Origin: a virus
Lineage: Duplodnaviria; Heunggongvirae; Uroviricota; Caudoviricetes
IMG/VR virus record: IMGVR_UViG_2695420430_000007
DNA: 5,707 nt
Strand: one strand, 5' to 3'
Shown: one piece after another, positions 1 to 4,431 of the stretch
Numbering within the stretch: position 1 is the first letter of the stretch
How the letters are laid out: every line of letters starts with the position of its first letter
Position numbers and translations under genes: made by a program
The notes under the pieces: generated by a model
Database searches by the model: none
What the model was told of the DNA's origin: nothing
What the model saw: only the letters and a program-made list of their open reading frames with translations

Positions 1-215
1 GTAACGACTGGCAGACGCTGGAGCTGGTGTTCACCGCCGGCAGTGCCACGGTTACTCCGAAACTGAATGGAGTGGCTGGCCCGGCATTCCAGGTTATAAA
101 AGACAGTCTGACACTGGGACTGAATGCGCTGACGCTGACGGATGTTACAAAAAATGCAGCGTATGGCGTTGAGATAGAAAGTCTGGTGCTGGAGATAAAT
201 GCACCCGCAGCATAA
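1..215 (+). CDS. 3' end of an unidentified phage late-region protein; gene starts upstream of the window
   Basis: Frame is open from the window start to TAA at 213..215. The translation (..NDWQTLELVFTAGSATVTPKLNGVAGPAFQVIKDSLTLGLNALTLTDVTKNAAYGVEIESLVLEINAPAA) is near-identical to the C-terminus of ORF 632..973. I do not recognise the family. Confidence 0.55.
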   Translation, partial: NDWQTLELVFTAGSATVTPKLNGVAGPAFQVIKDSLTLGLNALTLTDVTKNAAYGVEIESLVLEINAPAA

Positions 216-222
216 TAAAAAA

Positions 223-252
223 AGCCAGCGCCCACTCTGAAGGACGCTGGCT
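223..252. terminator. Hairpin AGCCAGCG-N14-CGCTGGCT preceded by an A-run; reads as hairpin plus T-run on the minus strand
   Basis: Perfect 8-bp inverted repeat at 223..230 and 245..252 with A-run at 214..223. On the plus strand there is no T-run after the stem, so it looks like a minus-strand intrinsic terminator or a conserved structured element. Confidence 0.4.
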
Positions 253-427
253 AAAACGGGTAGATGTACTTCACATGATACTTATATCTGGCAGTACATT
301 TTCTGACAGATAGTGACGGATGTTGTCAAGATATTGTGTCATTTATAACCTGAATCAGGGGAGGCCGGAATGTTATCTGGCATTTTTAGCAGAGCCTGAA
401 TGCCATAATCACGGCTCCCGGAGTTGG

Positions 428-463
428 CCGTCAGTGGGTGACACTGGCGGCTTTTTTGTTTTT
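428..463 (+). terminator. Intrinsic terminator-like hairpin plus T-run upstream of the truncated holin copy (copy of 1341..1376)
   Basis: CCGTCAGTG-GGTGA-CACTGGCGG stem-loop followed by CTTTTTTGTTTTTC. Confidence 0.45.
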
Positions 464-507
464 CTTTACTTTCATTTTCTGTCGGCGGTGACGGAGACAT
501 ACATCAG

Positions 508-627
508 ATGGAAAAAATCACAACAGGTGTGTCATACACCACGTCAGCGGTGGGGACGGGATACTGGTTACTGCAGCTGCTGGACAAAGTCTCTCCGTCC
601 CAGTGGGTGGCAATAAACCGTTCCTGA
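508..627 (+). pseudogene. Truncated pinholin copy: first 35 codons of the S21-like holin fused to 3 foreign codons, then stop
   Basis: ATG at 508 gives [36 protein letters not shown], matching the 1421 holin, then NRS and a stop at 625..627. Homology to the intact gene ends at 614. Confidence 0.7.
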
Positions 628-1420: not shown

Positions 1421-1627
1421 ATGGAAAAAATCACAACGGGTGTGTCATACACCACGTCAGCGGTGGGGACGGGATACTGGTTACTGCAGCTGCTGGACAA
1501 AGTCTCTCCGTCCCAGTGGGTGGCAATCGGTGTGCTGGGGAGTCTGCTGTTTGGCCTGCTGACGTATCTGACTAACCTTTATTTCAAGATTAAAGAAGAT
1601 AAGCGTAAGGTGGCGCGGGGAGAGTAG
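1421..1627 (+). CDS. S: Pinholin, phage 21 S21-like class II holin (68 aa)
   Basis: [68 protein letters not shown] aligns along its length with my recollection of S21 (..[51 protein letters not shown]). Two hydrophobic segments and a basic C-terminus. GGAG at 1406..1409. Confidence 0.9.
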
Positions 1628-1848
1628 TCGATGAATAAACAATACGAACTGGTTGTAAAATGAATATTTCTAACTGAAAAAACGTTCCATGAGGTAAGAA
1701 AAGGTCACAGGCAATCAATAACAGGACGTGATGAAAGACCCTTGCATTTGTGCGCTTTCTCTTTAGATAGCAGCAGATACTGAAAATCTGAGTTGTCGGG
1801 GAGTCAGGGATACAGCTGTGCAAGAGTTGGTCATTGTGATTCCATTGA

Positions 1849-1880
1849 AATCCTGTATGCCATGAAGGGCAGGATTTTAT
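1849..1880. terminator. Hairpin AATCCTG-N14-CAGGATT followed by TTTT, next to the stop of the minus-strand ORF
   Basis: 7-bp perfect stem at 1849..1855 and 1870..1876, then TTTTAT. Lies 3 bp beyond the stop of the minus-strand ORF and downstream of the holin on the plus strand. Could serve either strand weakly. Confidence 0.3.
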
Positions 1881-1882
1881 GG

Positions 1883-2197
1883 CTACCTGAGCTTTGGTGA
1901 TAGTAAGTTGAAAATTCGCATTTTTTGCTGACATGCGTAACGAGAATCCCATAAGCAGGGAGGACTTAATTCTTCATTAACCCATGCGTTGATATTATGT
2001 TTCAGCCGTTGAAGCATCAGCGGTGTTAATGTTGTGGTAATAATATCCAGCGTTTTATGTGAGATCTTACCGTAAGGGTCTGCAAGAATGCTGCTTGTTG
2101 CTTCGTTATTATCTGCCATCAGAAGAAGTAACTCTGATTTAACGTTTTCTGTCATTAGTTGTAAAAATCTTCTGCGCAAACTTTCTTTACTGTTCAT
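1883..2197 (-). CDS. Hypothetical 104-aa protein on the opposite strand, inside an AT-rich insert between pinholin and endolysin
   Basis: A 104-codon ORF in AT-rich DNA, where stop codons are frequent. Starts MNSKESLRRRFLQLMTENVK. Perfect TATAAT on the minus strand at 2270..2275. No family recognised; Shine-Dalgarno weak. Confidence 0.45.
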   Translation of the reverse strand: MNSKESLRRRFLQLMTENVKSELLLLMADNNEATSSILADPYGKISHKTLDIITTTLTPLMLQRLKHNINAWVNEELSPPCLWDSRYACQQKMRIFNLLSPKLR

Positions 2198-2314
2198 TTA
2201 TATGGCTTCATTTGTTGTAATCTGCTGCGTCTCAAGGGATATGTTTATGAGAGCGACCATGAGTGTTGGATTATATACCTAACATATCAAGGGATTAGAA
2301 ATCGATAAATCCCC

Positions 2315-2848
2315 ATGAACGAAAAAATAAAATACGGCCTGTCGGCTGCCGTTCTGGCGCTGATTGGTGCAGGTGCTTCTGCGCCTGAAATCCTCGACCA
2401 GTTTCTGGATGAAAAGGAAGGTAACCACACCACGGCATACCGTGATGGTGCGGGGATCTGGACCATCTGCCGTGGTGCCATTCTGGTGGATGGTAAGCCT
2501 GTTATTCCTGGCATGAAGCTGTCAAAGGAAAAATGCGACCGGGTTAATGCCATCGAACGTGACAAGGCTCTGGCATGGGTGGAGAAAAACATCCGGGTGC
2601 CGCTGACCGAACCCCAGAAAGCGGGGATCGCGTCATTCTGTCCGTACAACATTGGCCCCGGTAAGTGCTTCCCGTCGACGTTTTATAAACGAATTAATGC
2701 AGGCGATCGAAAAGGTGCCTGTGAGGCGATTCGCTGGTGGATTAAGGACGGTGGCAGAGACTGCCGTATCCGTTCAAATAATTGCTACGGTCAGGTCTCA
2801 CGGCGTGACCAGGAGAGCGCGCTGGCGTGCTGGGACATCGACAGATAG
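2315..2848 (+). CDS. R: SAR endolysin, T4-lysozyme-like muramidase (GH24), phage 21 R-like (177 aa)
   Basis: N-terminal Gly/Ala-rich weakly hydrophobic segment YGLSAAVLALIGAGASA typical of a signal-anchor-release domain. Catalytic motif E-x8-D-x5-T in EGNHTTAYRDGAGIWT. Overall resemblance to P21 R / RrrD lysozymes as I remember them. Confidence 0.88.
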   Translation: MNEKIKYGLSAAVLALIGAGASAPEILDQFLDEKEGNHTTAYRDGAGIWTICRGAILVDGKPVIPGMKLSKEKCDRVNAIERDKALAWVEKNIRVPLTEPQKAGIASFCPYNIGPGKCFPSTFYKRINAGDRKGACEAIRWWIKDGGRDCRIRSNNCYGQVSRRDQESALACWDIDR

Positions 2849-3068: not shown

Positions 3069-3182
3069 ATGAAAGGCATTGAAGTGGAGACGCCAGCCAG
3101 TCTGGATTTAACAAGAGCGGCAGCTTTTGCCATTCGTATTGTGGCCATTGCTGTTCTGGTCTGGGCAATCCGTTGGTGGTGA
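3069..3182 (+). CDS. Hypothetical 37-aa single-pass membrane peptide, stop 1 bp from the Rz start
   Basis: ATG at 3069 with GAGG at 3056..3059 (9-nt spacing). Translation MKGIEVETPASLDLTRAAAFAIRIVAIAVLVWAIRWW has a hydrophobic core and a WW C-terminus. TGA at 3180..3182, Rz ATG at 3184. Too short for the ORF track. Confidence 0.4.
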   Translation: MKGIEVETPASLDLTRAAAFAIRIVAIAVLVWAIRWW

Positions 3183-4116: not shown

Positions 4117-4431
4117 ATGCTACATGATCACGTGGCAGAATGTTTGGAGAAAAAAGGACTGTACCGGAGAGCAGCTGAACGATGGGCAAAAGTGATGGTA
4201 CAGCTAAGTGATGACCAGAAAAGAAAAGTGGCGGCACAGAAACGAGCAGAGTGTTTGCGTAAGGCGCGCCGGACTCCGGTTTCACCGGTGAACCTGACCG
4301 AAATAAAACAAGCGGTCAACAGACTACATTCTGAGTTGGGAATGGGATTTGAAGAGCGGCGGGTATTCCGACGATATAAAGGGACAGGAGAACAGAATAC
4401 GTCCGGAAACGCGCGGTCAAAAAAATGCTAA
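4117..4431 (+). CDS. PerC-family-like small basic protein (Pch-like candidate transcriptional activator), 104 aa
   Basis: GGAGG at 4106..4110, 6 nt before the ATG. N-terminal EKKGLYRRAAERWAKVM resembles the GLWRRAA..RW signature I recall for PerC/Pch. Family assignment from memory; needs an HMM or BLAST check. Confidence 0.55.
   Translation: MLHDHVAECLEKKGLYRRAAERWAKVMVQLSDDQKRKVAAQKRAECLRKARRTPVSPVNLTEIKQAVNRLHSELGMGFEERRVFRRYKGTGEQNTSGNARSKKC

Follow-up and report, generated by a model that had tools for sequence, protein, structure and literature searches.

The stretch of DNA analysed here (hereafter the window; 5,707 nucleotides, IMG/VR record IMGVR_UViG_2695420430_000007, Caudoviricetes) is the late region of an Escherichia coli lambdoid prophage. 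Its plus strand encodes, in this order, the C-terminus of a NanS-p-type esterase, an S21-type pinholin (S), a lysozyme (R) of the signal-arrest-release (SAR) type, Rz/Rz1, a PerC-family protein and a Nu1-like small terminase. The subject of this report is an open reading frame (ORF) of 104 codons on the minus strand between S and R, which we call ORF104 (1883..2197, with its TAG stop at 1885..1883) and which corresponds to ECs_1097 of strain Sakai, EDL933_RS06280 and WP_000138558.1. Its left neighbour on the late strand, the pinholin gene (1421..1627, +), matches PF04971 at E=1.9e-32 and is annotated as a class II holin by the Prokaryotic Genome Annotation Pipeline (PGAP). To its right, the SAR-type endolysin gene R (2315..2848, +; PF00959 at E=7.6e-24, phrog_7) is divergent from ORF104, with 118 bp from ATG to ATG.

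The S-R interval measures 687 bp (1628-2314) and has a G+C content (GC) of 0.390. An earlier note on this DNA, made from its letters and referred to below as the original prediction, had described an AT-rich block parting the pinholin gene from the SAR endolysin gene and, within it, the minus-strand frame of 104 codons; both are present at the positions given above, the block with 39% GC against 52% and 54% in the flanking genes and the frame intact. It had also proposed a GC comparison with the flanking lysis genes, which gives 0.384 for ORF104 and 0.376 for the region upstream of it (2198-2314), against 0.522 for S and 0.541 for R; the remaining part, 1628-1882, has 0.404. The picture of a single insert of ~690 bp was not borne out, however, as the left third (1628-1882) is a wrecked same-strand gene of the ydfR family. 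The block is composite, being made up of this decayed gene (1628-1882), ORF104, and the promoter and 5' untranslated region (UTR) of ORF104 (2198-2314), and the order in the window lineage is S, wrecked partner gene, antisense ORF104 with its promoter, and R. S and R look split by a 690-bp AT-rich block because the usual convergent neighbour, a ydfR-family/phrog_1085 gene, has decayed here.

ORF104 and its predicted product

Sequence comparisons indicate that ORF104 is a genuine gene under purifying selection. A closed ATG-initiated ORF of at least 104 codons arose in 0.9% of mononucleotide shuffles and in 2.6% of first-order Markov simulations of the 687-bp block, which agrees with the earlier argument that so long a frame is improbable by chance, although these frequencies are not decisive alone. 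In PHROGs v4 ORF104 matches phrog_1853, a family of 'unknown function': its residues 1-102 align with positions 57-158 of the 159-position profile (E=3.5e-47). The original prediction could assign it to no family, and neither Pfam nor NCBIfam gave a match. A search of 5.8 billion proteins returned E. coli hypothetical proteins only, and an exhaustive profile search of 1.8 billion representatives returned 20 clusters, mostly of ~105 amino acids (aa), at identities down to 21%. Even at 21% identity the length of the homologues is kept at 104-107 aa. From the fetched loci 33 distinct nucleotide versions were recovered, 25 of them intact and encoding 104-106 aa. The pairwise ratio of nonsynonymous to synonymous substitution rates (dN/dS, Nei-Gojobori), calculated for the 255 pairs with dS > 0.05 only, has a median of 0.20 and a range of 0.08-0.48, and the variable sites are spread over the three codon positions as 75/59/98. 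Close relatives of the window copy that have no partner gene (L062-L065) give dN/dS values of 0.10-0.14. In loci where a homologue stands in a porin context, blastn similarity to the window covers 2198..1884, which is ORF104 plus one base.

Two other frames were set aside, namely a 64-aa plus-strand ORF (formerly ECs1098, 2088..2282), which is not conserved and varies between 12 and 71 aa among homologues, and a 120-aa minus-strand ORF (1590..1952) with no family matches.

The annotated length of ORF104 differs by pipeline (78, 90 or 104 aa). PGAP starts the protein at M15 (window 2155), which yields 90 aa and is 14 codons short. We favour the 104-aa form because M15 is missing in phage-86-type homologues, which carry Ile at this place, because the N-terminal 14 residues are conserved, and because GAGG or GAAG stands 7-8 nt before the upstream ATG. 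In the window this putative Shine-Dalgarno element is a weak GAAG (2206..2209, -), 8 nt before the ATG at 2197, and the aligned column reads GAGG/GAGGA in other lineages. A conserved 5-codon upstream ORF before the ORF104 ATG was also considered and is better read as this Shine-Dalgarno region.

The AlphaFold2 model of ORF104, obtained from a shallow alignment but predicted with confidence, is a five-helix bundle with a predicted local distance difference test (pLDDT) score of 84.7 and a predicted template modelling (pTM) score of 0.74. The sequence is free of hydrophobic segments (Kyte-Doolittle means over 19 residues peak at 0.66), and net charge is not conserved in the family, with isoelectric points of 4.6-9.6. 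A holin, antiholin or other membrane lysis protein was rejected on the grounds that ORF104 has no transmembrane segment, is modelled as a soluble bundle and lies on the opposite strand. A sequence profile search of the PDB gave nothing below E=0.04; Foldseek against BFVD with the model gave nothing at E<1; no structural neighbour was informative; and no toxin or antitoxin family was matched. In PADLOC-DB 2.0 no family was matched at E<=1 by four diverse members, with a new kind of defence role still possible. Residues ~17-49 may bear a faint likeness to HEAT-like repeats, too weak to build on: the family hidden Markov model picked up a NACHT-HEAT protein (E=1.9e-5 when 9 repeats are added up), but the hhalign probability is only 14% and Pfam HEAT_EZ reached E=0.87 in a single family member. 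Going by the model, the product would be a soluble cytoplasmic five-helix protein with no DNA-binding signature, and most likely it works in trans by binding another protein or macromolecule.

Transcription start and candidate promoter elements

In a Cappable-seq atlas of strain EDL933, a transcription start site (TSS) for ORF104, gTSS 1272853, was recorded in 8 of 8 uninduced conditions, which comprised exponential and stationary phase in lysogeny broth (LB), M9, acid and salt, and a second one, gTSS 1272864, in 2 of the 8, both of them stationary phase (PMC10469882, Tables S5 and S7). With mean relative read scores of 31-72, gTSS 1272853 is on a level with the main yaaA and nhaA starts listed there (PMC10469882). 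EDL933 and the window are 100% identical over 2152-2327, and on the minus strand of the window the two starts map to 2274 (main) and 2263 (minor). ORF104 is, then, transcribed constitutively from its own start in the uninduced O157:H7 lysogen. The minus-strand transcript that had been predicted to begin near 2260 does exist, with a start at 2263, but this is the minor one and the main start is 2274. From the main TSS, an A at 2274, the 5' UTR (2198..2274, -) measures 77 nt and includes a conserved small stem, TCTCA...TGAGA.

The TATAAT to which the original prediction drew attention is present at 2270..2275 (-) and is conserved in five other loci (L005, L008, L009, L015 and L018). It cannot be the -10 element of the main TSS, as this TSS falls inside the hexamer, and TATAAT serves at most the minor TSS at 2263, for which it is a plausible -10. 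It is the only TATAAT in the window, where shuffles average 3.1, so the hexamer alone is not significant. The likely main -10 is the extended -10-like TGATATGTT (2281..2289, -), with a GATATGT block that is conserved across lineages. A candidate -35 element, TTTATC (3/6 positions; 2304..2309, -), lies 17 nt upstream of TATGTT, in a conserved GGATTTA block that abuts the start of R.

The EDL933 tables also list a weak antisense TSS, 1273088 (-), which corresponds to window 2039 (+) and thus lies inside ORF104 on the late strand, 276 nt upstream of R, with a relative read score of 2-4 in five conditions. To the lysozyme gene these tables assign two further TSSs, at window 2231 and 2219, each very weak and seen in one condition only.

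The partner gene and the distribution of the cassette

On examination of 1628-1882, remnants of the partner gene can be made out at two places. At 1631..1666 (+) stand the first 12 codons of a ydfR/DUF1327-family gene, left as a mini-ORF, MNKQYELVVK, with its stop at 1661-1663; 9 of the 12 residues match the N-terminus of phage Stx2-86 gp05, 7 of 10 match K-12 YdfR, and nucleotide identity to L003, L072, L096 and L097 is 87-92% over 38 nt. Weak tblastn evidence suggests a degenerate C-terminal remnant of the phrog_1085 family at 1713..1835 (+), with 39% identity to residues 146-186 of the 213-aa protein of L004 (E=3e-4 in a small database). In most of the diverged relatives a complete late-strand gene for 184-268 aa fills this space, and its end lies 8-16 bp from the ORF104 stop or overlaps it. 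Copies of the partner gene were located at L003 4292-5098 (-), L012 4324-4899 (-), L104 5338-5895 (-) and L101 1710-2264 (-). The partner genes share a C-terminal domain, GRCMGYLQ...PPFK (phrog_1085/phrog_26186), joined to variable N-termini; the motif of this domain, H..II...GRCMGYLQVAAEIE...PPFK..P.GW..PG, has no Pfam match, and the interchangeable N-termini consist of DUF1327, a coiled coil, or none.

The same region holds the hairpin that had been noticed next to the ORF104 stop (1849..1880). It exists, with an 8-bp stem AAAUCCUG/CAGGAUUU, but it is neither significant nor conserved: its folding is no better than that of shuffles (z = -1.1 on the minus and z = -1.3 on the plus strand), it occurs in the window lineage only, and the close relatives L062/L063 carry a stem mismatch. 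It is probably not functional, and as a terminator it was rejected, being no better than shuffles, confined to one lineage and devoid of a U tract on the minus strand.

The original prediction had pointed to an uncharacterised gene at the same position in the Qin prophage of K-12. This gene is ydfR (L002 6055-6366), which does sit between essQ and rrrQ, that is, between an S21-type holin gene and a SAR endolysin gene as ORF104 does; it is, however, on the strand of the lysis genes and tightly packed with essQ and rrrQ, whereas ORF104 is on the opposite strand and unrelated to it. BLASTP gave no alignment of ORF104 with K-12 YdfR at E<=100, and PF07041 (DUF1327) was found neither in ORF104 (Pfam, E<=0.01) nor in 12 family members at E<=10. 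As far as the sequences tell, K-12 YdfR is related only to the 12-codon remnant at 1631-1666 and not to ORF104. A 2026 paper reports binding of K-12 YdfR (DUF1327) to RNase E, in its catalytic N-terminal half, and co-purification of YdfR with RNA (PMC13232886), which may bear on the role of the DUF1327-containing neighbours of ORF104 in lytic growth.

Of 5426 complete E. coli genomes, at least 674 (at least 12%) carry the window-type allele of ORF104, nearly always in one copy; ECs_1097 lies in Sp4, a prophage of O157:H7 Sakai. Nearly always ORF104 and R diverge, their start codons lying 118-129 bp apart across lineages; for the most distant homologues, the divergent neighbour is a holin gene from another family. 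In phage Stx2-86, gp06 (orf6; phrog_1853) is 53% identical to ORF104 and is placed and oriented likewise, with a YdfR-family gene on one side and R on the other; Stx2-86 keeps the neighbour that the window copy has lost.

Comparison with related prophages, proposed as a check in the original prediction, revealed a clean presence/absence polymorphism next to R of a cassette of ~440 bp that consists of ORF104 and its promoter. In loci free of the cassette, essD and rrrD are contiguous (DLP12), ydfR and rrrQ overlap (Qin), or the gap between partner gene and R is 36 bp (Stx2_95). Among 78 IMG/VR loci fetched by the partner C-domain, 40 carry the cassette, with a gap to R of ~450 bp, and 38 lack it, with a gap of <50 bp. 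In one allele without it, a CCGATAA microhomology joins the last 13 nt of ORF104 to the bases that immediately precede R, and this junction with its leftover bases therefore represents a deletion of the cassette. ORF104 is intact in the degraded loci L008 (R frameshifted, no holin) and L015-17 (R gone, no holin), and in another setting, the interval from Q to a different lysis cassette, a homologue precedes a porin gene. The homologues come from E. coli prophages and metagenomic contigs. Scans of genome contigs for further homologues gave no confirmed match, and scans of viral contigs with the three most distant members found nothing.

In Sakai Sp4 (L099 33366-36376), EDL933 (L186 15697-18707) and ATCC 43894 (L098), the segment S-ORF104-R-Rz-pchA is flipped with respect to Q, nanS-p and the terminase genes and is bracketed by IS629 and ISEc8. 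Because of this inversion between IS629 and ISEc8, the lysis genes of the three strains are uncoupled from the late promoter; the ORF104 TSS of EDL933 is active despite the inverted lysis module. Two IMG/VR relatives, L052 (2433-5001) and L025 (5312-8200), have insertions of ~2.5-2.9 kb in a window-type locus, one between R and ORF104, where it severs the promoter within the 5' leader, and the other between ORF104 and the pinholin gene; these are probably insertion sequence (IS) elements.

The PerC-family gene of the window (4117-4431, +), whose protein WP_001303878.1 is common to EDL933, ATCC 43894 and L001, sits where pchA (ECs_1091) does in Sakai, and ORF104 thus travels in a pch-bearing prophage. 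pchA is an activator of the virulence island known as the locus of enterocyte effacement (LEE). The PerC-family gene of EDL933 has a TSS at 1271063 in 8/8 conditions of the EDL933 TSS table. In L015-17 the ORF104 homologue is preceded on its own strand, at a distance of 460 bp, by a PerC homologue.

A probable lysogen-expressed moron and its alternatives

We consider it probable that ORF104 is a moron with independent, constitutive transcription and that the lysogen is where its protein acts, in trans. The term is used here in the Hendrix and Juhala sense of an extra transcription unit in a phage genome. Four of the five hallmarks of such a unit are found, as ORF104 lies between genes that are contiguous elsewhere, deviates in composition, has its own promoter and is expressed from a repressed prophage, the activity of the promoter under repression being known from the published TSS data. 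The independently transcribed moron of the original prediction is supported by the median dN/dS of 0.20, the EDL933 TSS, the presence/absence polymorphism and the deviant composition. On this account ORF104 would act in the lysogen rather than during lysis, and it would benefit the lysogen or the resident prophage, for instance, by way of a guess, through phage exclusion or interference or by modulating a host process. A lysis-timing function is probably not what ORF104 provides. As no terminator follows ORF104, transcription probably continues beyond it, antisense to the S-R interval and perhaps into S, and such run-on could be a side effect or a second function.

Known lambdoid late-region morons include bor and lom of lambda and the nmpC/lc porin gene, which lies between Q and S in DLP12 and PA-2. 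Like bor-, lom- and nmpC-type morons, ORF104 interrupts a run of late genes that is unbroken in relatives, faces the other way, has a higher AT content than its neighbours, and is expressed without induction from its own promoter; one member of its family stands directly upstream of an nmpC/lc-type porin gene. However, bor, lom and nmpC/lc encode envelope proteins with known lysogen phenotypes, whereas ORF104 is predicted to be a soluble cytoplasmic helical protein, and unlike these morons it is without a recognisable terminator, its stop nearly abutting the convergent neighbour. A different analogy is offered by T4 RIII and P1 LydB, small cytoplasmic lysis regulators that are encoded in lysis cassettes. 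ORF104 may resemble them in being small, soluble, helical and placed among lysis genes; RIII and LydB are, however, co-transcribed with their lysis genes, whereas ORF104 is antisense, constitutively transcribed in the lysogen and retained in loci whose lysis genes have disappeared.

Several observations weigh against an independently transcribed moron. A terminator scan called none on the minus strand between 1883 and 1628, and in having no terminator of its own ORF104 departs from the textbook moron. The spacer from TGATATGTT to the main TSS is 4 nt only, which is unusually short, and a strict consensus promoter scan found no promoter in this region. That ORF104 nearly always borders a lysis gene on its 5' side may point to a role tied to lysis, and deletion of the cassette in about half of the sampled partner loci makes it dispensable for the phage. 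As regards translation, ECs1097 is not in the Sakai Ribo-seq supplement, which lists short genes only (the opposite-strand ECs1098 is listed there at low reads per kilobase per million), and none of the ORF104 coordinates was found in the EDL933 translatome supplements.

It is doubtful, though conceivable, that the cassette regulates or safeguards the lysis cassette, either by a promoter directed against the late operon, with convergent transcription or antisense RNA damping, in the lysogen, leaky read-through of the SAR endolysin, which is Sec-exported and dangerous, or by a protein that binds a lysis protein or modulates timing. ORF104 is almost always divergent from the start of a lysis gene at a fixed distance of 118-193 bp, this gene being R in the E. 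coli lineages and a holin of another family (PF16080, PF05106, PF04971, PF16931) in distant homologues, and such a role would also suit the constitutive transcription in the lysogen and the finding of no terminator between ORF104 and the late gene upstream, the 3' ends being 8-16 bp apart or overlapping. Purifying selection acts, however, on the protein and not on the promoter alone, the protein is predicted to be cytoplasmic, without a membrane segment, and ORF104 is intact in L008 and L015-17, where R and the holin are destroyed or absent. It is likewise intact, and its TSS active, in strains whose lysis module has been separated from Q. Moreover, about half of otherwise similar phages lack the cassette, and neighbours from several unrelated lysis protein families argue against a specific protein partner. 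A bolder proposal, which strikes us as unlikely, makes the cassette a lysogen-protecting device on lysis cassettes. It would be either a constitutive guard, in which antisense transcription and a protein silence the expression or action of holin and SAR endolysin or block lysis by related superinfecting phages, or the founder of a new prophage exclusion or defence family riding beside lysis genes.

The neighbour with which ORF104 shares its 3' border suggests yet another arrangement, which we regard as improbable, namely that ORF104 and the convergent phrog_1085/phrog_26186 gene form a two-gene module, such as a lysogen-expressed antidote or regulator of a late effector, of which the window copy would be an orphan. 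The partner adjoins ORF104 in most of the diverged lineages, including the most distant ones (P0019, P0023, P0033), with 3' ends that nearly touch or overlap; a search of 50,697 phage records gave 5 with the partner domain, of which 4 also have ORF104; and partner remnants flank ORF104 in the window, L008, L009 and L015. Adjacency alone would, however, yield such co-occurrence, 38 of the 78 partner loci have no ORF104, and no toxin or antitoxin family was matched. The common window lineage, L073/74/77 and the porin-context copies have no partner either, and in them ORF104 is still under purifying selection. A non-functional ORF104, whether a chance frame in AT-rich junk or one conserved on account of the other strand (e.g. 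ECs1098, 2088..2282, +), can be regarded as essentially excluded. The lack of a known domain, the weak Shine-Dalgarno sequence, the disagreement of pipelines on the start and the appearance of so long an ORF in 1-3% of shuffles would fit it, but dN/dS is ~0.2 over the 255 pairs, length is maintained down to 21% identity, similarity ends at the ORF boundaries in a foreign context, the frame has a dedicated TSS and the plus-strand ORF varies widely in length.

The family of ORF104 is already catalogued as hypothetical (phrog_1853; Stx2-86 gp06), and its TSS stands unremarked in a published supplementary table. In a literature search no paper was found to name WP_000138558, ECs1097 or the neighbouring tags, and ORF104 is undiscussed in a paper on the flanks of the stx2a operon. 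The gene is nevertheless part of the enterohaemorrhagic E. coli (EHEC) reference strains Sakai, where it lies in Sp4 next to the virulence regulator pchA, and EDL933, in which it is constitutively transcribed. With 104 aa, a mapped TSS and natural alleles with and without it, ORF104 is a compact target, and it offers a route to the role of lysogen-expressed genes antisense within lysis cassettes and to a function for an orphan PHROG. Should its behaviour be no more than that of other morons, the outcome is a tidy annotation fix; if it is true that it guards or modulates lysis or excludes phages, this would be a new mechanism in a very well-studied module.

Other features of the window deserve mention. 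Rfam has no match anywhere in it. A strong hairpin followed by a T run, resembling an intrinsic terminator, lies directly upstream of the pinholin gene (1339-1365, +) and is presumably a terminator read through by Q-modified polymerase; a similar GCCAGTG...CACTGGC+T hairpin stands, in the opposite orientation, in the 5' leader of the ORF104 homologue of phage-86-type relatives. The hairpin is duplicated near 426-452, as part of a segmental duplication that relates window 1-627 to 759-1530, with repeats of 1-224 at 759-982 (99%) and of 246-545 at 1159-1458 (95%). The duplicated segment comprises the NanS-p C-terminus, the terminator-like hairpin after it and the first 37 pinholin codons, and a second, truncated pinholin copy is present at 508-618. 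This double arrangement is absent from the near-identical reference locus L001 and from the other fetched loci, and it may result from recombination between prophages or be an assembly artefact. Finally, the 335-bp gap between R and Rz contains a 37-aa ORF (3069-3182, +; PGAP hypothetical protein WP_000675931.1) with a hydrophobic C-terminal half, which stops one base short of the Rz start.

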